Shown here: positions 4,918-18,633 of the stretch, one piece after another
Numbering within the stretch: position 1 is the first letter of the stretch
Layout of the letters: the number at the start of each line of letters is the position of its first letter
From: an uncultured Candidatus Saccharibacteria bacterium
GTDB lineage: Bacteria > Patescibacteriota > Minisyncoccia > 1-14-0-10-42-19
Direction: 5' to 3'
DNA: 64,000 nt
Assembly: GCA_964362625.1 (NCBI GenBank)
Contig: CAYIFA010000001.1
Coordinates: 2,994 to 66,993, forward strand
Made by a program: the position numbers and the translations under genes
Notes under the pieces: generated by a model
The model's database searches: none
What the model was told of the DNA's origin: nothing
What the model saw: the letters and a program-made list of their open reading frames with translations, nothing else

Positions 4918-5928
4918 CTATTCAATATCTGTCCATCGGATAATGCTGTCTTCGGTTATGTTATGTTTGGCCCTCTGCCCAATAACTTTATAAAGAAACT
5001 TAGCCGGGATGCCGTCATATAGCGGCCGCTTGGTTGATATGTCTTCGACGCCAATAATTTTTCCGGCAGGGACATCCTTAACAGTCACTACGGCATGACG
5101 CGCCCATTCGATAATAGGTCGTTCCTCGGAGAAAATTATCTTTACATTACCGCGAGCTTTCTCAATTTTTCGTACGCCATCTACAAGCATTTTGAATTCG
5201 TGCCGCTCCAATGAAACTTTGTGATCGCTGGTTCCTACGGTATTTCTATTCAAGGTGTAATGCTTCTCGATCAACGAAACACCATACGGCACTGCCGCAA
5301 TCGCAGAGAATATTTCCGGAGTATGATCAGACAACCCCACCGCCACTCCATAACGTTCTCTCATTTTAGGAATGACCCCCAAGTTAAGCCGCTCATAAGG
5401 CGTCGGATAAATCGATATGCAATGAACCAACATAAACGGGGTGCCATATGACCCGACAAGCTCAACTGTCTCGGTTATCTCCTGATATCCGCTCATGCCG
5501 GTGGAAATAATCATTGGCTTGCCTTTTCTGGCAATGTGCTCGATGAACGGTAAATCGGTCATTTCGCCCGAGCCGATTTTGAACGCATCAACACCGATTT
5601 CTTCCAATTGGTCAGCGGCCTTACGCGAAAACGGCGTACACAAAAAGTAAAGTCCTTTTGTTTCAGCATAGCTCTTAAGGTCGGCCAATTGACCGATTGA
5701 TAACGAACGCTTCCCCTGCATGAAGAATTTAGGATGAGAACGAATCATCTCCTCTCTCGGGATATGCAGTTGGAACTTCACTGCGTCAACGCCGGTACTT
5801 TCGATTTCGTCAATCATCCGCTTGGCAACTTCAAAACTGCCTTCATGAGTATTGGCAACTTCGGCTACAATAAACACCGGCTCGAAATCACCAACGAGTT
5901 TCCTGCCGAGCCTGATTCGCTTTAACAC
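4918..5928 (-). CDS. NeuB-family nonulosonic acid synthase (N-acetylneuraminate/KDN/pseudaminate synthase-like), paralog 1
   Basis: It has a PEP-condensing TIM barrel (FIVAEVANTHEGS, KFQ) and a C-terminal SAF domain. Length is 336 aa. Confidence 0.85.
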   Translation of the reverse strand: MLKRIRLGRKLVGDFEPVFIVAEVANTHEGSFEVAKRMIDEIESTGVDAVKFQLHIPREEMIRSHPKFFMQGKRSLSIGQLADLKSYAETKGLYFLCTPFSRKAADQLEEIGVDAFKIGSGEMTDLPFIEHIARKGKPMIISTGMSGYQEITETVELVGSYGTPFMLVHCISIYPTPYERLNLGVIPKMRERYGVAVGLSDHTPEIFSAIAAVPYGVSLIEKHYTLNRNTVGTSDHKVSLERHEFKMLVDGVRKIEKARGNVKIIFSEERPIIEWARHAVVTVKDVPAGKIIGVEDISTKRPLYDGIPAKFLYKVIGQRAKHNITEDSIIRWTDIE

Positions 5929-5931
5929 TGT

Positions 5932-6810
5932 TTAATCCTCCTTGATGAGTAGTTTGTCCTTGGCATAATACCCGACACCAATCATCCCGGCCTTATTGCC
6001 GTAGCGAGCTTTTCTGACTTTGATCGGTTTACCGCTAAGACCCCTAACTTTTTTTTCAAGTTCTCGTTTGTAAAATGGAAAAAGCAATTCGGTAATGCCG
6101 CCACCCATAACAACCGTACTAATATCGAGCAAATTCACTGCGTTCTGAACGGCTAAAACAAAATAGGGGAATTCGTCGGCTTGCGCCTGCCACAGCCGCT
6201 GGAGCTTCTCTGTTTTAAGTTCGGGGATACTCAGACTTAAATTAAGCGCGATCGCCCGGCCCGAACATAGATCTTCGATGCTGTAGTAATATCTTTCGCG
6301 AGAATCATAAATTTTTCCGATGCCGAATTCCCCGGCAAAACCAAGTTCTCCCTCTACAAGTTGCCCGTCAAGAACTACTCCTCCTCCTATTCCAGTTCCA
6401 ATGGCTAAGAACAAAAAGTTCTTAGGCGCATTCCGGCTTGAAGATAACTCGCAATAGGCCGCCGCGGAAACGTCATTAAGCGCGATTACCTGCCATTGCG
6501 TGAGCGACCCGATTTTTTGGAAATCAAGTCTCTTTATAAATTGAAACGGTCTCCAAGCCACCACCTTATAATCTCTAGTGATGCCCCCAGTGCAGGCAAA
6601 AGCCAGAGCGCTTATGGCATTGTCGTAAGAATGGATCGTCTCCACCAAGAAATTTTCAAATTTCTTTTTATCAGTAAAAGGAGTAGTAGAGGCCGCGTCC
6701 AGATATTTAAACCGATAATCATCCGGACTAAAAAGCCCCGACTTTACCGAGGTCCCGCCAATGTCAAAACAGAGAATTGGTCGGTCATCAACCAGCACGC
6801 CAACCTCCAA
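5932..6810 (-). CDS. ROK/glucokinase-like ASKHA sugar kinase, candidate ManNAc or hexose 6-kinase
   Basis: A phosphate-1 motif (CFDIGGTSVKSG) and a ROK-like motif (LAIGTGIGGGVVLDGQLVEGELGFAGEFG) are present. No obvious CxCGxxGC zinc motif was found. Confidence 0.65.
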   Translation of the reverse strand: MEVGVLVDDRPILCFDIGGTSVKSGLFSPDDYRFKYLDAASTTPFTDKKKFENFLVETIHSYDNAISALAFACTGGITRDYKVVAWRPFQFIKRLDFQKIGSLTQWQVIALNDVSAAAYCELSSSRNAPKNFLFLAIGTGIGGGVVLDGQLVEGELGFAGEFGIGKIYDSRERYYYSIEDLCSGRAIALNLSLSIPELKTEKLQRLWQAQADEFPYFVLAVQNAVNLLDISTVVMGGGITELLFPFYKRELEKKVRGLSGKPIKVRKARYGNKAGMIGVGYYAKDKLLIKED

Positions 6811-6856
6811 TCAAACCGCATCAAGGCTCAATTTCTGCAAATAGTATAACTTATAT

Positions 6857-7570
6857 CTAGATGTTTTTCAACGCGCGCTCGGCTAAAGACCAATCTTCCG
6901 GTTCATCAACATCAACGGCATATTTTGCATCTATTATATATGGCGCCACATGCTCACCGAAAAAATTAGGTTCGGTTTCATCAAATATAAAATGAGTTTT
7001 TAACAAATAAATGGAAGTATTATTCCAATATGCTTTTGGCACAGCTTGACGCGGAACGATTCTATTTCTTACCGGATTGCCGTTGAAAAGCTGGAGCCCG
7101 CCTTTTTCATTGACTACCATCGCGCGGTGCGGACTAAAATGAACCGGCATTTCCGAAATTCCCAGGACCGAATCAGCGCCGCTATTTAAAAATAATTCTA
7201 CTGCCTCCTTGATGTGAAAATCCTGACGCAATGGCGAAGTCGGTTGCAGAATCATTACCGCATCCGGCCCATAGTTTTCATTCTCTGCGAGCCACTTGAG
7301 CGCATGTTGAACCACCGGCATGGTTGGCGTATCGTCTTTGGCCAGTTCGGCCGGCCGCATAAACGGGACTTCACAGCCATTTTGCTTAGCAACTTTCGCA
7401 ATAGCCTCATCGTCAGTAGTTAAAATAATCCGGTCAAGTGAAGCGGATTTTTTCGCGGCCTCAATGGTATAAACAACAAGGGGCTTTCCGGAGAGTAATT
7501 TTATGTTTTTACCCGGGATACCTTTTGATCCACCGCGCGCAGTGATAATGCCCAAAATTTTAGGATTCAT
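6857..7570 (-). CDS. Acylneuraminate cytidylyltransferase (CMP-NulO synthetase) family, paralog 1
   Basis: It has the ITARGGSKGIPGKN N-terminal motif and the PTSPLR motif, both typical of CMP-NeuAc and CMP-KDO synthetases. Confidence 0.85.
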   Translation of the reverse strand: MNPKILGIITARGGSKGIPGKNIKLLSGKPLVVYTIEAAKKSASLDRIILTTDDEAIAKVAKQNGCEVPFMRPAELAKDDTPTMPVVQHALKWLAENENYGPDAVMILQPTSPLRQDFHIKEAVELFLNSGADSVLGISEMPVHFSPHRAMVVNEKGGLQLFNGNPVRNRIVPRQAVPKAYWNNTSIYLLKTHFIFDETEPNFFGEHVAPYIIDAKYAVDVDEPEDWSLAERALKNI

Positions 7571-8729
7571 GAAACACTTTTTGTGTATAAAGTGGAATTT
7601 TACTTAAAATTCTTACAATATTTTCGCTTGTATTTGGTTTAAAATAGCCTTTAAAGCCGGGATATTTGCCATGCCGAAGCTGATATTTGATGGCGTCCGC
7701 AATTTTGGCTGAACCGTAATCTCCATCCACGTCGATCACGCTTGGAGCGCGCAAACGTCCGGCCTGGCGGCTACCGATATTTACCGTCGGCACACCCAAA
7801 AATGACGCTTCTTTTATTCCGGATGAAGAATTGCCAACAACAATCGCAGCCTTTCTCAAAAGCGCCACAAAGTCATCCGGCAATAAATCAATCATAAATC
7901 TTATATTCACTCCGGTGTCTCCGGATTTTTGGTCGTGAATTTCGCGTAACCTACGGGACATATCGGCAGTCCCGGCATCAATATTTGGCCAAAACCATAC
8001 CGCTGACAATTTAGCTCTAACTAATGCGTCGTATATCGCTTCAACTCCCCGCACATGATCGGCTTCGCTGGTTACCGGGTGAAACATCACCAGCGCAAAA
8101 GGTTTTTCGATGTCAACATTACCGCCCACTCCGCGTAAATTAGCGTATTCGGAAGTAATTTTTTTATTGGAATTTTTTATAAATTCTAAATCCGGCGAAC
8201 CGACATTAAAAACCATTTTAGGATTTTCGCCCATTTGAATCACATGTCTACGAGCCGCGTCATTGGTTACAAAATGAATATGCGAAAGTTTGGTTATCGC
8301 ATGCCTGACGCTTTCGTCAATGCTTCCCGTAACATCGCCCCCTTCAATGTGCGCGATAGTTTTATTAAGGTATGCGGCAGACATGGCCAGCGCCAGTTGT
8401 TCAAATCTGTCACCATGAATCAAAACTATATCCGGATTTAACTTTTCAAAAATATTTGAGGTTTCCAGGGCGATCAAAGCGGCAGTTTTTGCCATAGCTG
8501 CATGGTTGCCGCCTTCAATAACATTTAATAAACGCTCTTTAATATTGAAATTGGCGGCCTCAACATCGGCAAGAGCCTTCTCGCCGTAGCGCTCCAGCAT
8601 TATCGAGCCGCCTAAAATAACCTGCGGTTCAATTCTTGGATTTTTATGCAGTCGGGTCAACAACAATTTTATCCGCGCGTAATATGAGCGGCTCAATATC
8701 GGAATGCAAATTTTTCTCTTTTCGGCCAT
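7560..8729 (-). CDS. neuC: UDP-N-acetylglucosamine 2-epimerase, NeuC-like (hydrolysing type)
   Basis: A 389-aa GT-B epimerase fold with an HIEGG motif and wecB/neuC family architecture. It is in an operon with the CMP-NulO synthetase and NeuB genes. Confidence 0.75.
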   Translation of the reverse strand: MAEKRKICIPILSRSYYARIKLLLTRLHKNPRIEPQVILGGSIMLERYGEKALADVEAANFNIKERLLNVIEGGNHAAMAKTAALIALETSNIFEKLNPDIVLIHGDRFEQLALAMSAAYLNKTIAHIEGGDVTGSIDESVRHAITKLSHIHFVTNDAARRHVIQMGENPKMVFNVGSPDLEFIKNSNKKITSEYANLRGVGGNVDIEKPFALVMFHPVTSEADHVRGVEAIYDALVRAKLSAVWFWPNIDAGTADMSRRLREIHDQKSGDTGVNIRFMIDLLPDDFVALLRKAAIVVGNSSSGIKEASFLGVPTVNIGSRQAGRLRAPSVIDVDGDYGSAKIADAIKYQLRHGKYPGFKGYFKPNTSENIVRILSKIPLYTQKVFHES

Positions 8730-8811: not shown

Positions 8812-8846
8812 ATAAAGAAAAGGCGGCTTGTCTGCTCAAGCCGCCT
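8812..8846 (-). terminator. Rho-independent terminator
   Basis: A 9-bp stem (aggcggctt / aagccgcct) with an 8-nt loop. It is flanked on the plus strand by aaagaaaa, giving a U-tract on the minus strand. Confidence 0.65.
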
Positions 8847-8853
8847 CTAGTGT

Positions 8854-8900: not shown

Positions 8901-10085
8901 TTACTTTTTCGCGAACTCTCGCAGGGTGCTGACAATCGCGCGGAGCGCGACGCCTTTTTCTGTTGGTTTTGGATAAAGCTGTTCTTGCTTTACCCTAAGT
9001 TCGCGGCACAAGACATTTCTCTGTTCTAGCAAATCAATAACGCTGTTAGCGATATATTGCGGTTCACCGCCAACATAGGAGGTAACTCCTTCTTCGACCA
9101 ATTCCCACTTGCCGCCAGAAACGCCCTTGAGTCGGACGCTTGTGGTAACATTTAAAAGGCTGATGACCGGCTTACGCTGGCAGACGGCCTCGATTTCAGT
9201 AGTAGAGGCAGGACCTATCAGTAAATCGCAGCCGGGAATCAAATCGGAAATTGAAACCTCTTTTGCTGATATTACTCTCGCCGGAATAGCATTCCATTTC
9301 ATCAATTCTTGATAGGACTTAACTCTGGACATTTCTTCAAAAGCAGTAAAAGTTTTTTCAACTTCTTTTTCATCCAAAGCGCGATTATCAGCATCCCTAT
9401 GCTTCGCGGCGTAATCTTTAATAAAGTTCCGCATACCATCATCCATCTCGACACGATCCCCTGGATGTCGGCTGAAAACCAATTGCCACTTACGTCGCCC
9501 AGTGACCATCCAATCCAAGTTGAAGGCCTCTAAAACACTGCTCCACATCGGCATGGTGATCGCTGATGGCTTATGCCCGACAACCAAAACAAACGTCTCA
9601 TCCAGCCGAATCCCGAGCTTGGCTCGCGACTCTTCGTATGACAGTTTCGGGAAATAAAACTCATCCCACAGCGGATTGCCGGAAGAAATAACTTTTGCTT
9701 TTAGAAAAACTTTCCGCGCCTCTCTGGCTTCCTTTTCACTCAAAACAAAAACAAAACTGGCATCAGCGCGAACACTCTCAAACCAATTACGGTTATGCGC
9801 GCAACCAAAGGTGTCGGCATAAAGTCCGTAAGGAATCCTAGCTTCGCGGGCAGCCATACACGACACAATTTCTTCTCTGGCAGTGTTGGCATTAGCCGAC
9901 ATACCTACCAGTAAAACATCTGCTGACCTTACAGCGGCAACAATCTTATCGTCAAGTACTTCAAGAGCTTTTCCTCTACCCAAAACCGGTATTACGCCGA
10001 ACTTTCCGGTTTCCAACAGCGAATCCCTGACCCTTTCGAACGCCTGCGACGGCGCGATGTCCCTAGCCACCAGCACTGCTCTCAT
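8901..10085 (-). CDS. GT-B fold glycosyltransferase-like protein (TagF/PseG-like), function unknown
   Basis: A Rossmann-like N-terminal half and a C-terminal GT-B motif (GPASTTEIEAVCQRKPVISL) are present, together with VLVVGHKPS and SRHPGD motifs reminiscent of the TagF family. It sits at the head of the neuC operon. Confidence 0.4.
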   Translation of the reverse strand: MRAVLVARDIAPSQAFERVRDSLLETGKFGVIPVLGRGKALEVLDDKIVAAVRSADVLLVGMSANANTAREEIVSCMAAREARIPYGLYADTFGCAHNRNWFESVRADASFVFVLSEKEAREARKVFLKAKVISSGNPLWDEFYFPKLSYEESRAKLGIRLDETFVLVVGHKPSAITMPMWSSVLEAFNLDWMVTGRRKWQLVFSRHPGDRVEMDDGMRNFIKDYAAKHRDADNRALDEKEVEKTFTAFEEMSRVKSYQELMKWNAIPARVISAKEVSISDLIPGCDLLIGPASTTEIEAVCQRKPVISLLNVTTSVRLKGVSGGKWELVEEGVTSYVGGEPQYIANSVIDLLEQRNVLCRELRVKQEQLYPKPTEKGVALRAIVSTLREFAKK

Positions 10086-10131: not shown

Positions 10132-10187
10132 AAAACAAAAGCCCCGTCAAGATTTGGCGGGGCGCTTACACTTCGGAAGTGTAAAGT
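10132..10187 (-). terminator. Tandem hairpins 3' of the Gfo/Idh/MocA gene (stop-proximal palindrome plus rho-independent terminator)
   Basis: A 9-bp palindrome (cttacacttcggaagtgtaag) overlaps the stop codon. A gccccg...cggggc hairpin follows, with an aaaacaaaa run on the plus strand (U-run on minus). Confidence 0.55.
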
Positions 10188-11311
10188 TATCCATAGTAAG
10201 CTTTATTAAGGATTCTCATTACTTCTAAACCGGAGCGGTAAGACAAAGGCGACTCGCAAGGATTAGTTGCTTTAAGCAGTGAATCGTAATGCTGGACTTC
10301 GTAATAAAAATCATCTGGACGGGTTTTAGGGAAAATCTCAACAACCTTCCGATTTTCTGTTTCGTACTTAACAACATCACCAGCCGGGTCGCCATTACAA
10401 TGCCATTCGAGCCAACCTTTTGTCCCTTGAACCCGCGCCCACTTGCGCGGCGGTTTGGTAACGACGTCCTGAGTTACATGCCCCACTCTTCCTTTGTTCA
10501 TCTGCATTATAAAATGGGCAATCCGGTCATATTCCACACGCTGCGATCCGGCTAAATCACTTACTACATTCAATTTACGTACCAAGTCGCAAAGTCCATA
10601 GCTTTCACCCGGCCACCACCATGCCCATGAGGCCAATTTCAGAAACAAATGCAAAGCGTGAGAATGCTCGTTGCCCGCTCCTCCGCCGCGGCGCCAATAG
10701 CCCAGATAGCTATCCTGCAGCCCAGATAGCCACGGATGCGCTTTAAAAGCCCCTTCCCAGTGCTCACGAAATTCAACGTCAATGGTTAAGATCTCACCAA
10801 ACTCTCCGCCATCACCCTTTCTCTCTTCAATCCGATTTTCATTAAGAAGATCGGCAACACGACGAATGCTGTTCGAAACCGCGTGATTGTAACCAACTGT
10901 TACAATCGTATCCGGATACTTTTTCATTTCGGCTTCAAATTCGGCAACACCTGTGAGGTTCGGAGTGCAGAGTGGTTTTTCTAGGTGCAGGAGTCTTGGG
11001 TTTTTCTTGATTTCTTCAATCGCCAGCTTCATCCGCACATCCGGAGGAGTAGTGATCATGATGATATCGAATCTATCAGGAATCGCATCTCCAGTCCTGT
11101 AGTCCTCAAATTGCGATGCGCCGCCAACCCCATCTGACAAAAATAGCCCTATCGTAAGATCAACTATTTGATAGCGGTCACTATAAATCCGGCGAAAACG
11201 ATCCAAAGCGCGTACACTCGTATCTACCACGGAAACCCGCCAGCCCATCCTGCAACACGCTTGCGCCAAATGGATCCCGGCCGAACCAGCCCCGATGATT
11301 TTTACGTTCAC
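10187..11311 (-). CDS. Gfo/Idh/MocA family NAD(P)-dependent sugar oxidoreductase
   Basis: It has a Rossmann motif (MNVKIIGAGSAGIH) and the family EKP motif (LHLEKPLC). Confidence 0.75.
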   Translation of the reverse strand: MNVKIIGAGSAGIHLAQACCRMGWRVSVVDTSVRALDRFRRIYSDRYQIVDLTIGLFLSDGVGGASQFEDYRTGDAIPDRFDIIMITTPPDVRMKLAIEEIKKNPRLLHLEKPLCTPNLTGVAEFEAEMKKYPDTIVTVGYNHAVSNSIRRVADLLNENRIEERKGDGGEFGEILTIDVEFREHWEGAFKAHPWLSGLQDSYLGYWRRGGGAGNEHSHALHLFLKLASWAWWWPGESYGLCDLVRKLNVVSDLAGSQRVEYDRIAHFIMQMNKGRVGHVTQDVVTKPPRKWARVQGTKGWLEWHCNGDPAGDVVKYETENRKVVEIFPKTRPDDFYYEVQHYDSLLKATNPCESPLSYRSGLEVMRILNKAYYG

Positions 11312-12023: not shown

Positions 12024-13568
12024 TTAGTCAAACTGATGCCGGCCCCAGTTTAATAAATAGGTTTTCCTGAAATCCCGCGGGAGCTTTGAAATTGCTTTAT
12101 CGGCATAGTAAGAATCATCGGGATGATTGGTAGTAGAAATTTCTTCAAAAATAACCCCGGTGTCACTGCCGAAAGCATGCACTATGCCGCGCGGCACCCA
12201 CAATGAATCACCCGGTTCCAAAACTTTTTGCCGGTCGTCGATATCAACTTTCATAACCCCGCTTAAAACATGAAAAGTTTCATCTTTTTTCATGTGGTAG
12301 TGCGCCGGGTTATATTGACCGGCTAATTGCACAACAATTTTTTTGGCGTATTCGCGATTAAAACAAGTGATTAAAGTACAGCCGGCTTTATGAAAATTCT
12401 CTACTCCATAATGATGCGAGAGTTCCACTTGAAAATCATGGCCCAATGGAACTTTGGCCGTATTAAGCATGCCCTTTATCGAATGGATGGCGTGATAAAT
12501 TATTTCTTTTTTCTCCGGAACATCCGATCGAGTTATGCCCGCGATGGCCTCTTTCGGCAGATAATCCTTATCAGCCAACATCCCATCCCTCCACCGGCCG
12601 CTTACCAACTGGCCGCCTTGCAAAGGCATGGCAAAAAATACATCCGAGCGGTCAATGATTGTTCCGGCCTCAATCCGGCGTTTGGCGTAAACCCCACGCA
12701 TTAGGGACCTGAGGTCGCTTGCTTCTTCTTCAGAAATGCTTCGCTCACCAGCTTCATGCCCGCATGCCTTAACTGCTTCTTTATACGAGGCGACCCAAGC
12801 GTCCACTTGTTCGGGAGACGCTGAATAAGCGTTCAATTTTATGCCGTCAGCCGGGACTCCAACATGCTTTTCAAAAATCCGCGCGCCTTTAGCGTAAGCA
12901 AGACCGACGAGCGACGTATTTGATGGCTCTTCATGCGTTGAAAAGCCAATAGTCAATCCGGGATAACGGCTGCGTAAAATTCCAATCTGATTTAAATGCG
13001 CTTTATCGTTGGTCATCGGATAAATTGAAACACAGTGCATAAGCGCGAAGTGCACCGCGCGTTTTTGGAAAAAGCTAACGATTTTATCAATATCTTTGAC
13101 CGTAAGTCCGCCGGTTGAAATAATTACCGGCCTGCCGGTATCAGCAACCCGCTCCAACAACGGAAAATCTAGGGCTGAACAGCTGCCGATCTTTATTATC
13201 TCAATACCCAGGCGCATGATGCGGTCAACCGACAGTTCGTCAAACGGCGTGCACATCGAAATCAAGCCGAGTTTTTTTGTTTCGGCGACCAATTCGGCGA
13301 ATTGCTCCTCGCTCATCCGCGTAGATAAAAATCTCGGGATATGCTTAATATCTTTGGACTCGCGGAAATCCGGATGAATAAAAGTATCCAGATCTCGAAA
13401 CTGCAGTTTCACTGCCGCGCGAATATTGTGCCTAGAAGCAATATCGGCCATGGCATTAATAATGCGCTGGCCATGCTCTACCGAACCTTGGTGATTATTG
13501 GCCATTTCGAAGACAAATAGATTTTTGAAATCAAATTGTGGCATGGAAATATTGTAAGATAAGGGCAT
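12024..13568 (-). CDS. NeuB-family synthase, paralog 2, with SAF domain and an extra C-terminal cupin domain
   Basis: A NeuB-like TIM barrel (FVFEMANNHQGS) and a SAF region are present. The C-terminal 150 aa carry cupin motifs (NPAHYHMKKDETFHVLSG ... GDSLWVPRGIVHAF). Total length is 514 aa. Confidence 0.8.
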   Translation of the reverse strand: MPLSYNISMPQFDFKNLFVFEMANNHQGSVEHGQRIINAMADIASRHNIRAAVKLQFRDLDTFIHPDFRESKDIKHIPRFLSTRMSEEQFAELVAETKKLGLISMCTPFDELSVDRIMRLGIEIIKIGSCSALDFPLLERVADTGRPVIISTGGLTVKDIDKIVSFFQKRAVHFALMHCVSIYPMTNDKAHLNQIGILRSRYPGLTIGFSTHEEPSNTSLVGLAYAKGARIFEKHVGVPADGIKLNAYSASPEQVDAWVASYKEAVKACGHEAGERSISEEEASDLRSLMRGVYAKRRIEAGTIIDRSDVFFAMPLQGGQLVSGRWRDGMLADKDYLPKEAIAGITRSDVPEKKEIIYHAIHSIKGMLNTAKVPLGHDFQVELSHHYGVENFHKAGCTLITCFNREYAKKIVVQLAGQYNPAHYHMKKDETFHVLSGVMKVDIDDRQKVLEPGDSLWVPRGIVHAFGSDTGVIFEEISTTNHPDDSYYADKAISKLPRDFRKTYLLNWGRHQFD

Positions 13569-14302
13569 TAACTATGCAATCGCTTTTTCATTAGAATTTC
13601 CGCAACTTCAAAATCAAGAGTACTGTCAATGTTTATCGAATCCTCCGGATTCATAAAAAAATAGGCAACTTTTTCGCCGGAAGTAGATTTTAAATCGCGA
13701 ATTGTATTGAGCCGCATAACATCCATTGCTCCGGTATGGACATAAACTTTCGGGAGCATTTGGCGCGGGAGGTTATACGGCTCATCCATTTTGGTGATGG
13801 TTTTCGGTAAAAACGGCTCCATGATTGCCGAGCTCCCGATTGTTTGCCACATTTTATAAGGATGCTTGGGTGATTCGGTTATCGGCCGACAGGAATCGGC
13901 ATCAGGATTATTCAAAAGCTTTTGAATGCCCTGATCAATATGCGCCGCAGTCCTAAGCGGTGAGGTCGGCGGCAGGCGTAAAACAATATCTGGCTCGTAA
14001 TCTTCTTTCTTCTTTAAAAAATCAAGCGCGTGGTTTAAAAATTCTACGTCGGTCGCGAGATCGCCGGAGATTTCCGCAGGGCGCAAAAACGGGACTTCTC
14101 CTCCATATTTTTCGGCAACCTTTGCGATTTCTTCGCTATCGGTTGAAATAATAAGTCGCGTCAAAAGATTTGATTGCTTTGCAATTTCAATAGTCCAAGC
14201 AATCAATGGCTTACCGGCTAAATTTCGTATATTTTTCCCGGGCACGCCCTTGGATCCGCCGCGCGCGGGAATAATTCCTAAAATCTCCATTTTTTTCATC
14301 AA
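13568..14302 (-). CDS. Acylneuraminate cytidylyltransferase (CMP-NulO synthetase) family, paralog 2
   Basis: IPARGGSKGVPGKN and PPTSPLR motifs are present. It overlaps NeuB paralog 2 by 1 nt, which suggests translational coupling. Confidence 0.85.
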   Translation of the reverse strand: MMKKMEILGIIPARGGSKGVPGKNIRNLAGKPLIAWTIEIAKQSNLLTRLIISTDSEEIAKVAEKYGGEVPFLRPAEISGDLATDVEFLNHALDFLKKKEDYEPDIVLRLPPTSPLRTAAHIDQGIQKLLNNPDADSCRPITESPKHPYKMWQTIGSSAIMEPFLPKTITKMDEPYNLPRQMLPKVYVHTGAMDVMRLNTIRDLKSTSGEKVAYFFMNPEDSINIDSTLDFEVAEILMKKRLHS

Positions 14303-14363
14303 TTGAATATAAACATACTTTCATTAAAAGACAAGCCCCGGCGCTAACCGGGACTTTTGAAAA

Positions 14364-16310
14364 TTATTTATAGATGTCCGTTATCCTGTCGGCAATAGAC
14401 AGATAATCTAGCTTGTGATACTTGAGAACCTCGTCATTCAATCCGCAAGCCGGAATTTCCTCTAGGCCATAATTGACTACAATCGGCCCGCCAAGTCTAC
14501 CAAAAATTCCCGAAATATATTCGCCCTGACCGCCCTTAATATAATGGTTATCTAATGTAAAAACAATTTCGGCATGATCAAACGTATCGTTGATCCAATC
14601 AGCATCAATGCGATTTAGCCAAGGAATGTTGAATACTGATAAGCTGTAATCAGTAAGTTCCTGAACACGCTTCGCGGCCTTTACTGCTTCAGTAAGCATT
14701 AACGGACCGTAGGCAATGATGTAAGCAAAGGAGGAGCCATTGTCACCTTTATACACGCATACGCCTTGTCCAGGCCTTAGCTGATAGTCGGGAGGGAGCC
14801 CGTAAGGCAAGTCCAAAGGAACATTAACAAATCGGATATAAGTGCTGTCCGGATTATTTTCAACCGCCCAACGAATTGCCATTCGGGCTTCGGCTTCAGA
14901 GGACGGTTCAATTGCCGTAAGCCCGGGCATTGCCGACATACAGGCAATGTCGCGCACTGACTGATGCGAATGTCCGGGACCGCCCGGAATCAAACCGGCC
15001 AGTGTTCCGATATAAATAATCTTGGATTTTTCAGTAGCATTATTGTAAATCTGCTCATTGGCGCGCGGGGTAAGGAAGCAAGCAAACGAATGAACAATCG
15101 GTAGCATGCCTTGTCTGGCAATACCGCCGGCCATGCTAACCATATCCTGTTCGGCAATCCCGCATTCAACAAATCTTTCCGGATGGCTTTTTTTGAATTC
15201 GGCAATCCCACAATCTTTCACCAGATCGGCGTCCAAAACTACAATGTCTTTTCGGTCTTCGGCAATCTTCAAAAGTTCGTCGCCATAAGCCGAAACAAGA
15301 TTCTGGGCTTTAGGAGATGCGGAAACGCGCTTTGGCATATCGCATGTCTCAAATTCCAAAACTATATCGCCTTTGGTCGATGCCCAGATACCTATTTCGA
15401 GTTCTGCAAGCGCGGCGTAATAATCATTATCCGACGGCGCTCCAGCATGATACTTGTAATATTCTTCATCGGCCTTCGGCTCCATAAAAGAGACGCCTTT
15501 ACCTTTGATGGTGTGAGCGATAATTGCTGTTGGGCGTCCGGAAAAAAATTTTGATTCGCGGACTTCTTTCAGAATCGCCGCTAACGACCAGAAGTCGTGC
15601 CCGTCAACTTCAAAGGTATTCCAGCCAAATGCATTGAATTTTTTGGCGATATGGCCAATGTCGCTGACATTTTTAACAAAGGTATCGGATTGCATTTTGT
15701 TGCAATCAACTATGACCGTGATCTCGGTATACCGGTCATTAGCGGTTTTCCCTAGTGATTCCCAAATCTGGCCCTCTTGCAATTCGCCGTCTCCGGTCAA
15801 AACGTAAATCCTTCCTCGCGTCCCTTGCATTCTTCGCGCGTAAGCCATGCCCCGCGCTTTTGAAACGCCCATACCAAGTGATCCGGTATTGGTTGCGATG
15901 AACGGAGTGCCGACATCCGGATGACCGGGCAGGCCGCCGATGCGACGAAGTTTGTGAACAAACTCATACGGAATATGTTCTCTTCCGATTAAAACTGAAT
16001 ATAAACCGGGAACATCGTGGCCTTTTGAAGAAAAGAATACATCAGAATGTGGCGGATCAATTTTCAAGTCATGATCAAATTCTTGATTCGGCGAATTCAT
16101 CTCCCTTTCCCACAACCAAGTTACTATATCCATCGCGCTGAAACTCGTCCCGATATGACCGGAACCGGCTTCCTTGATCATAGAAAGGGTATTTAAGCGA
16201 TATATATCGGCCAGCACTCTCATTCGTGCAAACGCATCGCCCGTAACCCATGAGCGAACCTTCCTGATTTGCTCAAGCGGCACAAAATAGAGTTTTCCTT
16301 TTTCAAACAT
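14364..16310 (-). CDS. tkt: Transketolase (full-length, TPP-dependent)
   Basis: A GSGHIGTSFSAMD TPP motif, a GDGELQEGQIWE motif, a pyrimidine-binding domain and a C-terminal domain are present. Length is 648 aa. Confidence 0.85.
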   Translation of the reverse strand: MFEKGKLYFVPLEQIRKVRSWVTGDAFARMRVLADIYRLNTLSMIKEAGSGHIGTSFSAMDIVTWLWEREMNSPNQEFDHDLKIDPPHSDVFFSSKGHDVPGLYSVLIGREHIPYEFVHKLRRIGGLPGHPDVGTPFIATNTGSLGMGVSKARGMAYARRMQGTRGRIYVLTGDGELQEGQIWESLGKTANDRYTEITVIVDCNKMQSDTFVKNVSDIGHIAKKFNAFGWNTFEVDGHDFWSLAAILKEVRESKFFSGRPTAIIAHTIKGKGVSFMEPKADEEYYKYHAGAPSDNDYYAALAELEIGIWASTKGDIVLEFETCDMPKRVSASPKAQNLVSAYGDELLKIAEDRKDIVVLDADLVKDCGIAEFKKSHPERFVECGIAEQDMVSMAGGIARQGMLPIVHSFACFLTPRANEQIYNNATEKSKIIYIGTLAGLIPGGPGHSHQSVRDIACMSAMPGLTAIEPSSEAEARMAIRWAVENNPDSTYIRFVNVPLDLPYGLPPDYQLRPGQGVCVYKGDNGSSFAYIIAYGPLMLTEAVKAAKRVQELTDYSLSVFNIPWLNRIDADWINDTFDHAEIVFTLDNHYIKGGQGEYISGIFGRLGGPIVVNYGLEEIPACGLNDEVLKYHKLDYLSIADRITDIYK

Positions 16311-16368: not shown

Positions 16369-16386
16369 TTGTCAATTCTTCCGGCA

Positions 16387-16427: not shown

Positions 16428-16430
16428 CTT

Positions 16431-17345
16431 TTAGAGAGCGGTCCAGCCGCCGTCGACAACTAGGGTCGAGCCAGTCATGTAGCGGCTCGCTTCTGAAACC
16501 AAAAACAGGATTGCGCCGTTGTAATCATCCGAGTTAGCCATCCGCTTCAGCGGAGTCCGCTGCACGTATTCGGCGATAAAACGCGGATCTTGATTTTCTT
16601 TTACACCACCTGGCGCCAAAGTGTTTACCCGGATATTCAACCTATGGTAGCCGCAATAACCGGCAAGCCATCTGGTGAAATTCAGCACTCCGGATTTGGC
16701 AACGCTATACCCAACCGGTTTGTTGTAATCAATATCGCCATCAGCTCGGCGAAAATCATAAATTGACTGATCCGGACTAACTAATCCGTAAGTAGAAGAA
16801 ATATTTACGATTTTGGCCCACTTGTCTTTGGCAATTTTCCCTGACTCGCGAGCAGACCGAAAATTCCTGATAAACTCCTGGCTCACCAAAAACATTCCGG
16901 TCAGATGAGAATCCAGAACTGCGTGCCAAGTTTCTTCGGAATAATTTTCAAACAGGCCATTATCCGATGCCGGCGCGTCAGGACGAGAATCCATGCCGGC
17001 ATTATTGATAAGAATTGTAGGAGTACCGCGTTCCGCTTCCTCCATCCATTTAAAAAAACCTTGAATTTCTTTTCTATTGGTAATGTCGCACGTCCAAGCT
17101 TGTCCCGCCATCCAATGACCGAGCCCGCACATTTCGCGAGCCAACTTCGCTACGTCATCGGCAAAATGATCCTTAAGGTCTAAAGCGACTACATTTGCCC
17201 CGGCTTTCATGAGCGTCATAACATACTGACTCCCCAATAAGCCCATCCCGCCAGTTACAATCGCAACTTCGCCGTCCAAGTTAAACAATTTGTCAAAAAA
17301 CGCATGCTGTATATCATTCCGGCTCTCGGGCCATTCATTGCGCAT
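16431..17345 (-). CDS. SDR-family oxidoreductase (classical short-chain dehydrogenase)
   Basis: It has the motif VAIVTGGMGLLG, the motif NNAG, and the catalytic motif YSVAK (YxxxK). Confidence 0.8.
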   Translation of the reverse strand: MRNEWPESRNDIQHAFFDKLFNLDGEVAIVTGGMGLLGSQYVMTLMKAGANVVALDLKDHFADDVAKLAREMCGLGHWMAGQAWTCDITNRKEIQGFFKWMEEAERGTPTILINNAGMDSRPDAPASDNGLFENYSEETWHAVLDSHLTGMFLVSQEFIRNFRSARESGKIAKDKWAKIVNISSTYGLVSPDQSIYDFRRADGDIDYNKPVGYSVAKSGVLNFTRWLAGYCGYHRLNIRVNTLAPGGVKENQDPRFIAEYVQRTPLKRMANSDDYNGAILFLVSEASRYMTGSTLVVDGGWTAL

Positions 17346-17550
17346 GCAAAATCCTCATTTTCGATACTATGTGATTCTAAAGTAATTGTAGAGGGTGCTA
17401 ATAAAAAATCAACCCCGTCACTAGAAAATGGCATATTGATGCGCGTTTCTATTGAGGGGCCCACTGAGGATTCTGGATTAATTAATCGTTACAATGACCC
17501 GTGTTAAGAAGAGCGCATCAAAGAAACGCCATGCCATTTTCAGTGCGGGG

Positions 17551-18633
17551 TCAAGACCAAACAATATCTTCGTGCTTTATAACACCATCTTCGGCAATGT
17601 CGGCCTTGGCGGTTTTCCCTACTATCTCGCCAAGCATTCGTGGCTTTAAGCCATAACCCGGGCTTTTGCAGGTGAGCATTTCGGCGGTTATTTTGGCGCC
17701 GGCCGGAATCCGGGTTTTCGCGACAATGCTTTTGGAGTGTTTGTCGCGCGTCGGTTTTTCAACGTCAAAAAGAAACTTGCCGTATTGGCCCATGGCCTTT
17801 TCAATCCGGCGGGTAGACACCACCATGTGCTTGAATTCCACTGGATCAACGCTAACCGTAGCATGATCCGGACCCGGCAGATTTTTATCGAGGGTAATAT
17901 GGCGTTCAACGGTTTTCGCGCCAAGGGTAATTGCGGCAAGTGTCGGCAAAAATCCTTTTTCGTGACCAGAATATCCAATTGGCAGTGGATTATATCGTTC
18001 TCTTAAAAAGGGGATGGTGGCTAAATTCAAATATTCATCCAAGGTCGGGTAAACCGAAACGCAATGTTTTATGATCAGCTGGTTATTATGCTTTAGAATC
18101 GTCTCGACTCCTTCATCTAGCTCCTCCAAAGAATGCATGCCGGTTGATAAAATCATTGGCTTGCCTTTTTTGGCCACATGTTCCAGGAGCGGTAAATTTG
18201 AAACGTCGAATGAAGCAATTTTATAAACATCCATCCCGACTTCTTCCAAGAAATCTGCGCTTTTTTTATCAAATGGAGTCGCGAAAAATATTGTGCCGAG
18301 CTTTTGCGCGTGTTCTTTGAGTTTCAAAAAATTATCCATATCCAACTCCAGGGCCTTCCGATACTCGCCATAGGTTTTGCCGAAAATCTGGTCCTTAGTT
18401 TGTTCTTTATTTTGAAGTTCTTTAGCAAAGACTTCGTCAATAAAACGCTTTTGAAATTTCACCGCATCAGCACCGGCTTTTACCGCCTCTTCAATGGTGC
18501 GTTTCGCCAAGAAATAGTCGCCATTGTGGTTATTCCCGATTTCAGCAATAAAAAATACCGGCTCGCCTTCGCCGACAAAGCGACCTCCAATCTTCACTTT
18601 CCGCGGCAAATCCTTAAATTTGTCTCGCAACAT
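17551..18633 (-). CDS. NeuB-family synthase, paralog 3
   Basis: FFIAEIGNNHNGD and KFQK motifs plus a C-terminal SAF domain are present. Length is 360 aa. Confidence 0.85.
   Translation of the reverse strand: MLRDKFKDLPRKVKIGGRFVGEGEPVFFIAEIGNNHNGDYFLAKRTIEEAVKAGADAVKFQKRFIDEVFAKELQNKEQTKDQIFGKTYGEYRKALELDMDNFLKLKEHAQKLGTIFFATPFDKKSADFLEEVGMDVYKIASFDVSNLPLLEHVAKKGKPMILSTGMHSLEELDEGVETILKHNNQLIIKHCVSVYPTLDEYLNLATIPFLRERYNPLPIGYSGHEKGFLPTLAAITLGAKTVERHITLDKNLPGPDHATVSVDPVEFKHMVVSTRRIEKAMGQYGKFLFDVEKPTRDKHSKSIVAKTRIPAGAKITAEMLTCKSPGYGLKPRMLGEIVGKTAKADIAEDGVIKHEDIVWS

Follow-up and report, generated by a model that had tools for sequence, protein, structure and literature searches.

The gene content of this Patescibacteria (CPR) groundwater genome suggests that, in a bacterium with a tiny genome, the production of acidic surface keto-sugars is encoded by three gene sets that differ from one another and are not redundant. 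NeuB-type enzymes condense phosphoenolpyruvate (PEP) with a sugar to yield an acidic 3-deoxy-2-keto sugar, and three such synthases are encoded within 14 kb of the window, by which we mean the entire 64,000-nucleotide stretch analyzed. We interpret them as belonging to three independent modules (M1, M2, and M3) in three transcription units, and assign a probability of roughly 0.6 to this explanation taken as a whole, proposed pathways included. Each module is conserved in other genomes. From the modules together the cell would probably obtain CMP-activated acids of at least two and perhaps three kinds, destined for a polymer or glycoprotein of its surface. The original prediction of at least two distinct pathways thus holds in that more than one ulosonic acid pathway is encoded, the number of modules being three; it also called the products nine-carbon keto-sugars, and here the multiplicity of ulosonic acids stands, but a nine-carbon size is without support for the M2 and M3 products.

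The three NeuB-family synthases and two CMP-transferases were found as five ORFs at the positions predicted for them, all on the minus strand, and the three N-terminal peptides cited for the synthases are present in the sequence. Pairwise identity was 29% for NeuB1/NeuB2, 38% for NeuB1/NeuB3, 30% for NeuB2/NeuB3, and 40% for CMP1/CMP2. These low identities indicate that the paralogs are old and, as originally proposed, divergent rather than recent duplicates. The same stretch from NeuB3 to a 394-aa ORF recurs at 99–100% identity in an 8.4-kb contig (L001) from an independent assembly, demonstrating that the juxtaposition of genes is not due to mis-assembly. GC content is even throughout the region. 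The strongest minus-strand hairpins coincide with the gap between the transketolase of M3 and CMP2 of M2 (14333..14356; 10-bp stem, 6 of its pairs GC, trailed by T-rich sequence, terminator-like by consensus match only), with the gap between the 394-aa ORF of M2 and NeuC of M1 (8819..8848; 12-bp stem, 7 of its pairs GC, and the strongest terminator-like hairpin of the region), and with the sequence following NeuB1 (4891..4911; 8-bp stem, 6 of its pairs GC, followed by a T run, likewise terminator-like). Promoter and terminator counts in the region were not above shuffled expectation. Start/stop overlaps couple CMP2 to NeuB2, HAD to GFO, and NeuC to CMP1.

The relationships of the synthases were determined by neighbor-joining. 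NeuB1 and the N. meningitidis Neu5Ac synthase are sisters, NeuB3 is found in a clade of its own, and NeuB2 forms a deep separate clade with PDB entry 3g8r and all of the NeuB-cupin fusions described below. All three synthases contain the catalytic, metal-binding, and PEP-binding residues E25, K53, Q55, K129, S132, S154, Y186, S213, H215, E234, and H236 (pocket positions are given in N. meningitidis NeuB numbering). [quoted passage not shown] This position is R in all 26 members of the NeuB1 family, which also invariably retain D247 and E134; it is M, I, or F in 116 of 120 members of the NeuB2 family. The NeuB3 family has the signature R314 to S (118/120), N74 to K (119/120), E134 to D (120/120), and F288 to K (120/120). 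In the NeuB1 family a specific basic loop (HPK...KRSLS) occupies the site of the Asn74 loop of the reference enzyme, the loop so replaced being one that contacts the C6 hydroxyl. Rather than a single clade with identical substrate-determining residues, we therefore find three clades with different pockets. The clades differ from one another in family-wide pocket residues, in domain architecture, and in conserved gene neighborhood, and these data together indicate that distinct ulosonic acid pathways, more than one in number, are present. For all three modules, we infer the substrates, products, and order of reactions from the genes.

M1 (8729 to 4918) begins with a NeuC-type hydrolysing UDP-GlcNAc 2-epimerase (7560..8729), which passes the equivalog cutoff of TIGR03568 (334 bits, cutoff 235.9). 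Its stop is overlapped by CMP1 (6857..7570), a CTP_transf_3 (PF02348) cytidylyltransferase (Pfam E 7e-25) that scores 179 bits against the PseF equivalog, below the cutoff of 205.7. A ROK-family sugar kinase follows (5932..6810; Pfam ROK E 1e-26); it is a candidate ManNAc 6-kinase, ManNAc kinases being its best NCBIfam matches at scores far below cutoff (90 bits compared to 283). The last gene encodes NeuB1 (4918..5928), a 336-aa synthase with NeuB (PF03102; E 6e-67) and SAF domains that, among PDB entries, matches N. meningitidis NeuB best (E 1e-57). A sugar kinase adjoins the synthase in all four independent NeuB1-family contexts, this being ROK here and PfkB in loci L077, L078, and L082, a non-orthologous replacement at an equivalent position. 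Epimerase_2 and CTP_transf_3 genes are also present in 4/4 of these contexts and an adjacent HAD hydrolase in 3/4; M1 in the window has no HAD of the type that adjoins NeuB1 elsewhere. The presence of the sugar kinase speaks for a route through phosphorylated sugars, as in animals, and not for the one usual in bacteria. According to this scheme, NeuC would convert UDP-GlcNAc to ManNAc, the ROK kinase would phosphorylate ManNAc, NeuB1 would condense ManNAc-6-P with PEP, some phosphatase would remove the phosphate, and CMP1 would activate the product, a Neu5Ac-type acid.

M2 (14302 to 8901) is built around NeuB2 (12024..13568), a fusion of a synthase of the 3g8r type (residues ~1–345; Pfam NeuB E 2e-41) to a D-lyxose/mannose-isomerase-like cupin (residues ~380–514; Pfam Cupin_2 and Lyx_isomer). 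The C-terminal cupin was absent from the original prediction, and a further amendment concerns the gene grouping: HAD and GFO belong with NeuB2, and the transketolase and SDR with NeuB3. The N-terminal domain of NeuB2 aligned with 3g8r over residues 15–329 (E 2e-90). An AF2 model of residues 335–514 had a pLDDT of 90, and the top 10 PDB matches of the cupin model by Foldseek were all D-lyxose/mannose isomerases (TM 0.64–0.72). The metal and Lys motif of the cupin, H-x-H-x-x-K-x-E...H, was invariant in 72 sequences, and 70 of the 73 loci, which span many phyla, contain the full-length fusion.

The other M2 genes lie on either side of the fusion. Upstream is CMP2 (13568..14302, or starting at ~14290 in an alternative gene call), a CTP_transf_3 cytidylyltransferase (Pfam E 4e-27) whose stop overlaps the NeuB2 start and which scores 143 bits against the PseF equivalog (cutoff 205.7). 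CMP2 shares 70% and 46% identity with the M2-type transferases of L006 and L004, respectively, as against only 36–37% with M3-type transferases. The neighbor of its 70% match is a NeuB2 ortholog, with neither transketolase nor NeuB3 nearby, indicating that CMP2 is a gene of the NeuB2 module and that NeuB3 is consequently without its own transferase here. Downstream are a HAD-IA phosphatase (11308..11964; Pfam Hydrolase and HAD_2), which overlaps by 4 nt the start of a GFO/IDH/MocA-family sugar oxidoreductase (10187..11311; weak Pfam match, family profile E 3e-9 to glucose-fructose oxidoreductase 1evj), and, closing the unit, the 394-aa protein (8901..10085), which may be a GT-B-fold transferase. 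The Pfam search gave no match for this last protein; its family has ~415 cluster representatives, a few members of which weakly match Epimerase_2, Glyphos_transf, Capsule_synth, or GT9, and its single-sequence AF2 model was unusable (pLDDT 38).

Of 70 fusion loci, 31 have GFO, 30 a CMP2-like gene, and 25 HAD at a distance of no more than 8 kb from the fusion. The module of GFO, fusion, HAD, and CTP_transf_3 occurs in CPR, Rhodospirillales, and Desulfuromonadales, and a natural triple fusion NeuB-cupin-CTP_transf_3 exists (P0082). The Bacteroidota fusion lies beside a CMP-transferase and a KpsC/S-like Capsule_synth protein, and neither GFO nor HAD accompanies the Bacteroidota and Clostridia versions. 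As judged from these genes, M2 would probably convert a ketose phosphate to an aldose phosphate and thence to a non-aminated acid. The cupin of NeuB2 would turn a ketose (probably a phosphate such as fructose-6-P) into a manno/lyxo aldose, the fused NeuB domain would condense this aldose with PEP, the HAD enzyme would dephosphorylate the product, and CMP2 would activate it; at some step of this route, the GFO oxidoreductase would alter one hydroxyl or keto group. Our best guess is that the product is most likely KDN or a close derivative. In Methylophaga the fusion is found among NDP-hexose enzymes with a flagellin gene adjacent, a context indicating that a simple fructose-6-P to KDN scheme fits poorly for the fusion family as a whole.

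M3 (18633 to 14364) starts with NeuB3 (17551..18633), a 360-aa synthase with NeuB (Pfam E 9e-78) and SAF domains that scores 315 bits against TIGR03569 (cutoff 399.65) and whose family maintains 60–90% identity across many CPR lineages. It is followed by an SDR oxidoreductase (16431..17345; Pfam adh_short_C2) resembling gluconate-5-dehydrogenase, KduD, and PtmA, with sugar-acid dehydrogenases as best NCBIfam matches, all below cutoff, and by a full-length transketolase-type TPP enzyme (14364..16310; Pfam Transketolase_N, Transket_pyr, and Transketolase_C) with human-type transketolase 3ooy as best PDB match (E 2.5e-61) and 366 bits against NF004559 (cutoff 488). Adjacent orthologs of all three genes are found in L074, L075, L076, and L080, where the SDR (44–46% identity) follows NeuB3 and the transketolase is 52–55% identical; these modules additionally contain aldehyde dehydrogenase, CTP_transf_3, and a HAD or KdsC-type phosphatase (the latter TIGR01670 114.6, above the cutoff of 106.95). 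M3 in the window contains no aldehyde dehydrogenase, phosphatase, or CMP-transferase of its own, all of which are present in other CPR. It is a reduced version, which may be incomplete or may share CMP2. The sugar condensed with PEP by NeuB3 would be a different one, lacking an N-acetyl group and probably supplied as a phosphate by the transketolase, and the SDR would modify it. A candidate transferase for the CMP-activated acids is a TagB/TagF-like (Glyphos_transf) GT-B protein on the same strand (21654..23021; Pfam E 1e-13), which weakly matches the BFO_1060 family (44 bits, cutoff 200). Glyphos_transf genes flank M2 or M3 in L002–L007, L075, L076, and L078, and the Pse/Leg transferases of Tannerella forsythia are TagB-like proteins (PMC5420450).

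A potential concern is whether M2 and M3 act independently, because parts of M3 abut the fusion in L071 and the two might therefore cooperate. Both could belong to the same pathway and yield just one unusual acid, perhaps with a longer chain: a ketose phosphate from the transketolase would be isomerized by the cupin, condensed with PEP by a NeuB domain, dephosphorylated by HAD, and activated by CMP2, NeuB3 serving as a second condensation or back-up. A precedent is lincosamide octose biosynthesis, in which pentose-phosphate-type enzymes extend the sugar chain and an isomerase then acts. Consistent with such a pathway, the transketolase lies directly upstream of CMP2 and NeuB2 here, an aldehyde dehydrogenase and a transketolase ortholog lie directly upstream of the fusion in L071, NeuB3 is adjoined by an M2-like CMP-transferase in L076, and there are only two CMP-transferases for three synthases. 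We nevertheless consider it unlikely, since most M2 loci are without transketolase or NeuB3 (of 70 loci, 1 has a transketolase no farther than 8 kb from the fusion), fusion-free M3 has its own type of CMP-transferase in L074, L075, and L080, and a terminator-like hairpin separates the transketolase from CMP2. It is quite improbable that NeuB3 and the transketolase are instead central-metabolism genes lying by chance beside glycan genes, NeuB3 replacing, for example, a synthase of the DAHP or KDO8P type that uses erythrose-4-P or a pentose phosphate, with M1 and M2 the only surface-sugar pathways. The unusual conservation of NeuB3 across CPR, its weak matches (and those of P0228) to DAHP synthase models, the likeness of the transketolase to ordinary short-type enzymes, and the missing CMP-transferase of M3 would all fit. 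However, NeuB3 retains the SAF domain typical of sialic-acid-type synthases, and in four other CPR genomes M3 lies inside glycan loci, includes CTP_transf_3 as well as a KdsC-type phosphatase, and has TagF-like, Wzy_C, and Bac_transf genes on its flanks.

The identity of the products raises a similar question. The original prediction named Neu5Ac, KDN, and legionaminic- or pseudaminic-type acids; the first is kept as a Neu5Ac-type product for M1 and the second for M2, but the last two seem very unlikely. For these to be made by standard bacterial nucleotide-sugar routes alongside Neu5Ac, NeuB2 or NeuB3 would have to be LegI or PseI. All three synthases match both the NeuB_NnaB and PseI models, PseF is the best match of both CMP-transferases, and SDR dehydratase/epimerase genes are numerous in the window, which also has a DegT aminotransferase (62006-63169). 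Yet none of the three synthases reaches the cutoff of either NCBIfam equivalog model, nor do the CMP-transferases reach theirs; the DegT gene, the only one in the window, is ~43 kb away, and no dehydratase, aminotransferase, or N-acetyltransferase lies in or beside the 14 kb. Arg314, which is kept by CjPseI, is missing from the NeuB2 and NeuB3 families, and CjPseI clusters with other CPR NeuBs found beside aminotransferases (L074, L080) in a PseI-like clade that has no member in the window. The conserved partners of NeuB2 and NeuB3 (isomerase, phosphatases, transketolase, aldehyde dehydrogenase) are also not Leg/Pse pathway enzymes. That the synthases are redundant, all making the same acid such as Neu5Ac, is extremely unlikely: they share one Pfam family and their catalytic residues, but are only 29–38% identical, fall into three clades, and differ in substrate-contact positions family-wide, in domain architecture, and in conserved partners.

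We thus favor three independent modules, and these differ in how they relate to known systems. A literature search found no description of the NeuB2-cupin fusion or of M3, and both M2 and M3 appear to be widespread but uncharacterized. In B. thetaiotaomicron and Prymnesium, synthesis of KDN from Man-6-P by way of Kdn-9-P is an established route (PMC6200933). The phosphatase of the known KDN pathway is of the KdsC/BT1713 type, whereas the M2 HAD is not. M1 resembles the phosphorylated route by which animals make sialic acid, in that its intermediates on the way to a Neu5Ac-type acid would carry a phosphate.

ORF calling and Pfam searches placed three NeuB-family synthases and two CTP_transf_3 CMP-transferases on the minus strand at the coordinates that the original prediction had assigned to them, and the N-terminal peptides quoted with that prediction were found in the ORFs. 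In order of transcription, the minus-strand genes are UvrA (21567-18724), NeuB3 (17551-18633; Pfam NeuB, E 9e-78, plus an SAF domain), an SDR (17345-16431), a transketolase (16310-14364), the CMP-transferase CMP2 (13568-14302), the 514-aa NeuB2 (12024-13568; NeuB, E 2e-41, plus a C-terminal cupin), a HAD protein (11964-11308), a GFO/IDH/MocA oxidoreductase (GFO; 11311-10187), a 394-aa protein with no function assigned (10085-8901), NeuC (7560-8729), the CMP-transferase CMP1 (6857-7570), a ROK kinase (6810-5932), NeuB1 (4918-5928; NeuB, E 6e-67, plus SAF) and a nucleotide-sugar dehydrogenase-like ORF (4884-3961). NeuC was recognized by TIGR03568 and the other named genes by Pfam. The last ORF encodes 307 aa from a TTG start, lacks the C-terminal domain of its family and is possibly a truncated gene or a pseudogene. 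Overlaps of start and stop codons occur at CMP2-NeuB2, HAD-GFO and NeuC-CMP1. The three strongest terminator-like hairpins of the minus strand are all intergenic, between the transketolase and CMP2 (14356-14333), between the 394-aa ORF and NeuC (8848-8819) and after NeuB1 (4911-4891); the total of such sites was not above shuffled expectation, so that the positions alone are suggestive. The stretch from NeuB3 to the 394-aa ORF matches a separately assembled 8.4-kb contig of a groundwater sample (prefix Hain_H51) at 99-100% identity. The source names of homologous sequences assign the organism to the Patescibacteria, or candidate phyla radiation.

The paralogs are old, as had been proposed, with identities of 29% (NeuB1/NeuB2), 38% (NeuB1/NeuB3), 30% (NeuB2/NeuB3) and 40% (CMP1/CMP2). 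The proposal of multiple pathways stands in that several distinct ulosonic acid pathways are encoded. It needed correction in its details: the modules are three rather than two, the partners had been mis-assigned, and the C-terminal cupin of NeuB2 was absent from the description. We refer to the modules as M1 (NeuC, CMP1, ROK kinase and NeuB1), M2 (CMP2, the NeuB2-cupin fusion, HAD and GFO) and M3 (NeuB3, SDR and transketolase).

All three synthases scored above the gathering cutoff of Pfam NeuB (PF03102; 226, 142.6 and 261.5 bits for NeuB1, NeuB2 and NeuB3, respectively, against 22.1). They are annotated today as N-acetylneuraminate synthase family proteins or left unnamed, and this naming masks the differences between them. 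None reached the cutoff of the N-acetylneuraminate synthase model TIGR03569 (288.9, 133.4 and 314.8 bits against 399.65) or of the PseI model TIGR03586 (245.7, 126.8 and 254.2 bits against 340.25). For residue analysis, the sequences of N. meningitidis NeuB and C. jejuni PseI were rebuilt from PDB alignments and aligned with the families of NeuB1, NeuB2 and NeuB3, the latter two represented by the best 120 homologs each; numbering follows N. meningitidis NeuB and residue roles are taken from the literature (PMC11339185). The metal ligands H215 and H236 and the PEP/catalytic residues E25, K53, Q55, K129, S132, S154, S213 and E234 are kept in all three proteins and their families.

The families differ at positions of the substrate pocket. 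Arg314, located in the SAF (antifreeze-like) domain, binds the N-acetyl carbonyl of ManNAc in bacterial NeuS (PMC11339185). This residue is Arg in 26/26 members of the NeuB1 family, Ser in 118/120 of the NeuB3 family and Met, Ile or Phe in 116/120 of the NeuB2 family, the window proteins having Arg, Ser and Met, respectively. Asp247, which contacts ManNAc, is Asp in the NeuB1 (26/26) and NeuB3 (120/120) families and Asn in the NeuB2 family (118/120). At the hydrophobic pocket position Phe288 the families have Trp (NeuB1, 26/26), Lys (NeuB3, 120/120) and Ser (NeuB2, 101/120), and at Glu134, a position with no role assigned, Glu (26/26), Asp (120/120) and Ser (117/120). Asn74 of the β2-α2 loop, which contacts the C6 hydroxyl of ManNAc in the reference enzyme (PMC11339185), is not kept: it is Lys in 119/120 of the NeuB3 family, the NeuB2 loop is wholly different, and NeuB1 has an aligned Lys within a shorter loop (HPK...GKRSLS).

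A rough neighbor-joining tree with five PDB-derived references only placed the NeuB1 clade as sister to N. meningitidis NeuB, NeuB3 in a clade of its own, and NeuB2 with PDB entry 3g8r and all the fusions in a deep separate clade. C. jejuni PseI clustered with NeuB proteins from the candidate phyla radiation (CPR) that lie beside aminotransferases, none of which is in the window, and NeuB1-3 all grouped apart from B. subtilis SpsE (1vli), the sole Leg-type reference in the tree. Legionaminic- and pseudaminic-type acids had been among the suggested products. Both CMP-transferases matched the PseF model TIGR03584, with 179.1 bits for CMP1 and 143.4 for CMP2, below its cutoff of 205.7, and both exceeded the PF02348 cutoff of 22.6 (88.6 and 95.9 bits). 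Pfam identified no aminotransferase or acetyltransferase, as expected of a pseB/C/H/G-type neighborhood, adjacent to NeuB1-3, no legB/C/H/G-type enzymes were present in their neighborhood, and no synthase grouped with C. jejuni PseI. We consider legionaminic or pseudaminic acid an unlikely product of the cluster.

M1 looks like a phosphorylated, animal-type route to sialic acid. NeuC scored 334.3 bits with TIGR03568, above the cutoff of 235.9. The ROK protein reached the cutoff of the ROK family alone (94.4 bits against 22.9) and fell below the ManNAc kinase models NF003461 and NF047821 (90.4 bits against 283 and 76.8 against 450). Close relatives of NeuB1 are few, with about 28 above 52% identity followed by a fall to about 47% in diverse phyla. 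In four independent contexts (the window, L077, L078/L079 and L082-L084), a sugar kinase lies beside the NeuB1-type synthase in all four, a ROK protein in the window and a PfkB protein in the other three. The presence of two unrelated kinase families at one position is good evidence that a phosphorylation step belongs to the M1 pathway. Epimerase_2 (NeuC-like) and CTP_transf_3 genes are likewise present in 4/4 contexts and a directly adjacent HAD hydrolase in 3/4; no dedicated phosphatase adjoins M1 in the window. In the close NeuB1 family a shorter basic loop (EM..SHPKF.TQ.KRSLS), conserved among the members, takes the place of the Asn74 loop; homologs at 50% identity or below do not have it. 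As judged from sequence, basic residues near C6 would suit a substrate phosphorylated at that carbon. We consider it somewhat likely that M1 uses ManNAc-6-P. Our search of the literature for a bacterial Neu5Ac-9-P route returned general papers only.

Relatives of M1 elsewhere show variations in gene content. In one NeuB1-type cluster from another CPR contig (L082, 415-3674), an Aminotran_3 gene and an iron-type alcohol dehydrogenase gene precede the CMP-transferase; we take this pair to resemble KdnA/KdnB, the makers of 8-amino-Kdo, and by that analogy it could yield a terminally aminated sialic acid. In another (L078, 5555-5971), a free-standing cupin of 138 aa lies between the CMP-transferase and a deacetylase. 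Natural fusions of a NeuB1-like synthase with CTP_transf_3 also occur (P0290 and P0343, 576-577 aa). A scan of viral contigs for relatives of NeuB1 and NeuB3 found none.

The defining feature of M2 is the cupin of NeuB2. A model of residues 335-514, built from a 72-sequence alignment, had a mean pLDDT of 90, and the top ten Foldseek matches in the PDB were all D-lyxose isomerases (2y0o, 3kmh/3mpb and 7nzo-q), with the entire domain aligned at E values near 1e-10 and TM scores of 0.64-0.72. Among these entries, 7nzp and 7nzq show a D-lyxose isomerase bound to D-fructose or D-mannose; next in the ranking came L-ribose isomerases, along with phosphomannose isomerases of archaea. The motif H-x-H-x-x-K-x-E...H (H89, H91, K94, E96 and H130 in domain numbering) is invariant in the 72 sequences, and H89, H91, E96 and H130 presumably correspond to the catalytic residues of the solved lyxose isomerases. 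By sequence profile the domain falls short of the lyxose isomerase equivalog NF051472 (25.3 bits against 350), and Pfam Lyx_isomer gave 31.8 bits over the whole of NeuB2, in which no stretch passed by itself. On the simplest interpretation, NeuB2 would be bifunctional, converting a ketose to a manno- or lyxo-configured aldose and then condensing this with PEP. With fructose-6-P as substrate, the product would be Kdn-9-P, and later steps would proceed as in the Kdn pathway. KDN or a KDN derivative is thus a possible product of M2, an assignment that we offer tentatively. The HAD protein at 11308-11964 matched generic HAD-IA models only; it is not of the KdsC type and did not match the Kdn-9-P phosphatase model NF058599. 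For GFO, the best profile match was glucose-fructose oxidoreductase (E 3e-9), which confirms family membership alone. PDB sequence searches with the HAD, GFO and 394-aa proteins found no informative close relatives.

The fusion is widespread, with more than 7,900 homologs at E ≤ 1e-10; the best 120 are 57-100% identical and all metagenomic, the named ones being Patescibacteria. A scan covering a single genome of each species yielded 66 loci with a relative; with the metagenome loci added, 70 of 73 encode the full-length fusion. Among its carriers are Rhodospirillales (Magnetovibrio blakemorei MV-1 and Kiloniella sp. EL199), Desulfuromonadales, Geobacteraceae, Bacteroidota, Clostridia, Methylophaga sulfidovorans, Marinitoga lauensis and Victivallis. 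BLAST of the window proteins against all ORFs of the 73 loci resolved three context groups. At 48-70% identity (CPR, Rhodospirillales and Desulfuromonadales), four genes make up the module, namely those for CTP_transf_3, the fusion, HAD and GFO; no more than 8 kb from the fusion, 31 of 70 loci have GFO, 30 a CMP2-like gene and 25 HAD. At about 50% identity (Bacteroidota and Clostridia), the fusion accompanies a longer CTP_transf_3, a TylF methyltransferase and a KpsC/S-like Capsule_synth protein. At 41-47% identity (Methylophaga, Marinitoga and others), it lies with NDP-hexose-type enzymes beside a flagellin gene.

In M. sulfidovorans DSM 11578 (L058, 5549-14983), the fusion directly follows the flagellin gene. 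The genes around it encode an acetolactate-synthase-like TPP enzyme, a C-methyltransferase, a 4,6-dehydratase, an NTP-transferase and a long DegT-type enzyme. This locus of a cultured strain is a flagellin glycosylation island, and its context differs from that of the CPR loci, which suggests that some members of the fusion family may take other substrates. Larger natural fusions join NeuB-cupin to CTP_transf_3 (770 aa) or to a PF01467 cytidylyltransferase-like domain (674 aa), as in P0008 and P0082, the latter a triple fusion of NeuB, cupin and CTP_transf_3. We found no paper describing a NeuB-isomerase fusion in the literature on NeuB with cupin or on 3G8R. The cultured carriers M. blakemorei MV-1, Kiloniella sp. 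EL199, M. sulfidovorans and M. lauensis mean that the product of the fusion could be identified experimentally now.

M3 was delimited from the contexts of NeuB3, whose family is very common in Patescibacteria at 60-90% identity. In four of five independent contexts, NeuB3 is followed by orthologs of the window SDR (44-46% identity) and transketolase (52-55%), from which we conclude that the window copies belong with NeuB3. That both genes travel with NeuB3 also led us to reject them as partners of NeuB2 feeding the cupin. The window transketolase has the three-domain architecture, scored 366.2 bits with NF004559 (below 488) and had human transketolase as its best PDB match (E 2.5e-61). An aldehyde dehydrogenase is present in the four contexts, and CTP_transf_3 in three of them (M3-type in L074 and L080, M2-like in L076). 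The context L075 has a HAD phosphatase, and L080 has a KdsC-type phosphatase (TIGR01670, 114.6 bits against a cutoff of 106.95) along with an enolase-superfamily sugar-acid dehydratase and an ApbA-type reductase. The M3 of the window lacks the aldehyde dehydrogenase and an M3-type CMP-transferase. CMP2 was considered for the latter role and rejected: it is 70% identical to the transferase beside the fusion in L006, a locus with neither transketolase nor NeuB3, and 36-37% identical to the M3-type transferases, which share 53% with one another. In a Saccharibacteria fragment (L071), an aldehyde dehydrogenase and a transketolase lie directly upstream of a NeuB2-type fusion, indicating that M3 and M2 are neighbors in at least two lineages. 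To our knowledge, the combination of NeuB, transketolase, SDR and aldehyde dehydrogenase is part of no described pathway.

Candidate transfer genes adjoin the modules. The window has two TagB/TagF-like Glyphos_transf genes, one at 21654-23021 and the other, a weak match, at 26573-27979, and such genes flank M2/M3 in most related CPR loci, often with Wzy_C, a flippase and Bac_transf. About 415 cluster representatives make up the unnamed family of the 394-aa protein, and a few of them weakly match GT-B families; the single-sequence structure prediction of this protein (pLDDT 38) was discarded. The region from 21654 to 63684 is mostly one glycan-biosynthesis island, nearly all on the minus strand. 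At least nine of its genes encode SDR-fold nucleotide-sugar epimerases/dehydratases, and others encode an RmlC-like epimerase, a GHMP kinase, a DegT aminotransferase (62006-63169), an asparagine-synthase-like amidotransferase, a GT2 transferase, PhyH dioxygenases and several methyltransferases, FkbM among them. Three radical SAM enzymes within the island, two of them B12-binding (36377-38440, 46078-47472 and 49396-51207), suggest C-methylation or other radical chemistry on sugars. Besides the M3 transketolase, the TPP enzymes comprise a split E1 alpha/beta pair and a fused E1-like protein (39664-41677 and 53911-55800); TPP enzymes in sugar clusters can attach two-carbon branches. A cytidylyltransferase-like/APS-kinase fusion (55895-56668) adjoins a sulfotransferase (56673-57626), which hints that the surface glycan is sulfated. 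A 179-aa ORF at 57623-58162, with a borderline match to the HpcH/HpaI aldolase and pyruvate kinase barrel, may be a fragment of an enzyme that acts on PEP or pyruvate. At 1743-2633, NusB and NUDIX hydrolase domains occur together in a single ORF, an unusual fusion.

Every chemical step of M1-M3 is one that we infer. Overall, we put the probability that at least two different CMP-activated acids are made at roughly 75%, and two or more of the products probably differ from classical sialic acids. Under a broader reading, which we regard as unlikely when its parts are taken jointly, M2 and M3 would be two undescribed routes to CMP-activated 3-deoxy-2-ulosonic acids that start from central sugar phosphates, not nucleotide sugars. 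The lyxose-isomerase domain of M2 would channel a ketose phosphate directly into PEP condensation. The full M3 (NeuB3, KdsC/HAD phosphatase, SDR, aldehyde dehydrogenase, CMP-transferase and transketolase) would condense a transketolase-derived short aldose phosphate with PEP, after which the product would be dephosphorylated and its terminal carbon oxidized to a second carboxylate, giving a 3-deoxy-ulosaric acid. Dha is a known acid of this type, and we know of no organism in which the genes for its biosynthesis have been established. If this reading is true, ulosaric-type acids would serve as major anionic units of the cell envelope in Patescibacteria, where TagF-like enzymes would polymerize them.

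Patescibacteria, whose genomes are very small, grow attached to other cells, and hardly anything is known of their surface chemistry. Here, three different NeuB-type pathways occupy 14 kb within a glycan island that spans at least 60 kb. Two of the gene sets are widespread in Patescibacteria, each with more than 7,800 homologs at E ≤ 1e-10, of which the best 120 are 57-100% identical, and this wide recurrence suggests that acidic keto-sugars are a core component of the envelope. Searches of the literature on nonulosonic or sialic acid synthases of Patescibacteria/CPR, and on NeuB with cupin, transketolase or cytidylyltransferase, found nothing relevant. The findings are of note for glycobiology and CPR biology and are directly testable in the cultured carriers of the fusion.

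The general kind of system, a NeuB-type synthase with a CMP-transferase and a glycosyltransferase, is already known, and individual parts of the cluster can be compared with characterized proteins. The clade of NeuB2 contains 3g8r, a structural genomics entry from Chromobacterium violaceum ('spore coat polysaccharide biosynthesis protein E') for which the structure is solved and no function is assigned. It aligns with residues 15-329 of NeuB2 (E 2e-90) and shares its pocket substitutions (S134, N247 and F/M314), but, unlike NeuB2, has no cupin domain. The cupin shares its whole fold with D-lyxose/D-mannose isomerases (YdaE 2y0o, E. coli Z5688 3mpb and Thermofilum 7nzo; TM about 0.7), with an rmsd of 1.8 Å to B. 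subtilis YdaE and the metal motif invariant across the cupin family. It differs from these enzymes in having only about 20% identity, in scoring below the NCBIfam equivalog and in being fused to a synthase. TagB-like GT-B proteins of Tannerella forsythia (the BFO_1060 family) transfer CMP-Pse/CMP-Leg derivatives (PMC5420450), and Glyphos_transf/TagB-like GT-B proteins flank the modules in the window and in most related CPR loci. However, the window protein is a weak match to the T. forsythia family (44 bits against a cutoff of 200) and could equally be a true glycerol- or ribitol-phosphate transferase.

M2 fits the logic of the KDN pathway of B. thetaiotaomicron (BT1713-BT1715) and Prymnesium parvum, in which a sugar phosphate is condensed with PEP, dephosphorylated and activated with CMP; the established sequence runs from mannose-6-P and PEP to Kdn-9-P, Kdn and CMP-Kdn (PMC6200933). 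NeuB2 lacks the Arg that binds the N-acetyl group, as fits this pathway, and the cupin could supply mannose-6-P from fructose-6-P. M2 differs in that its synthase is a member of the deep 3g8r clade joined to an isomerase-like domain, its phosphatase is of the HAD-IA rather than the KdsC type, and it has an additional conserved GFO.

M1 resembles the NeuC-NeuB-NeuA systems of N. meningitidis and E. coli K1: NeuC is above its equivalog cutoff, and N. meningitidis NeuB is closest to NeuB1 (E 1e-57), which keeps Q55, Y186, D247 and R314. It departs from them in always having an adjacent sugar kinase and in the exchange of the Asn74 loop for a shorter basic one, and NeuB1 scores below the NeuB equivalog cutoff. 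The phosphorylated route is found in humans, B. thetaiotaomicron (Kdn) and Prymnesium, whereas many bacteria use no phosphorylated sugars (PMC6200933). The animal pathway (GNE, NANS, NANP and CMAS) shares with M1 a UDP-GlcNAc 2-epimerase, a ROK-family kinase, a NeuB-type synthase and a CMP-transferase, to which relatives of M1 add a HAD phosphatase, as in animals; one report assigns the kinase domain of GNE to the ROK family (PMC2742894). Unlike in the animal pathway, the M1 genes are separate rather than fused, relatives have PfkB instead of ROK, the window M1 has no adjacent dedicated phosphatase, and NeuB1 keeps Arg314, which the mammalian Neu5Ac-9-P synthase lacks (PMC11339185). M1 would represent a case in bacteria of the animal-type route to sialic acid through phosphorylated intermediates, and as such would bear on the evolution of the pathway.
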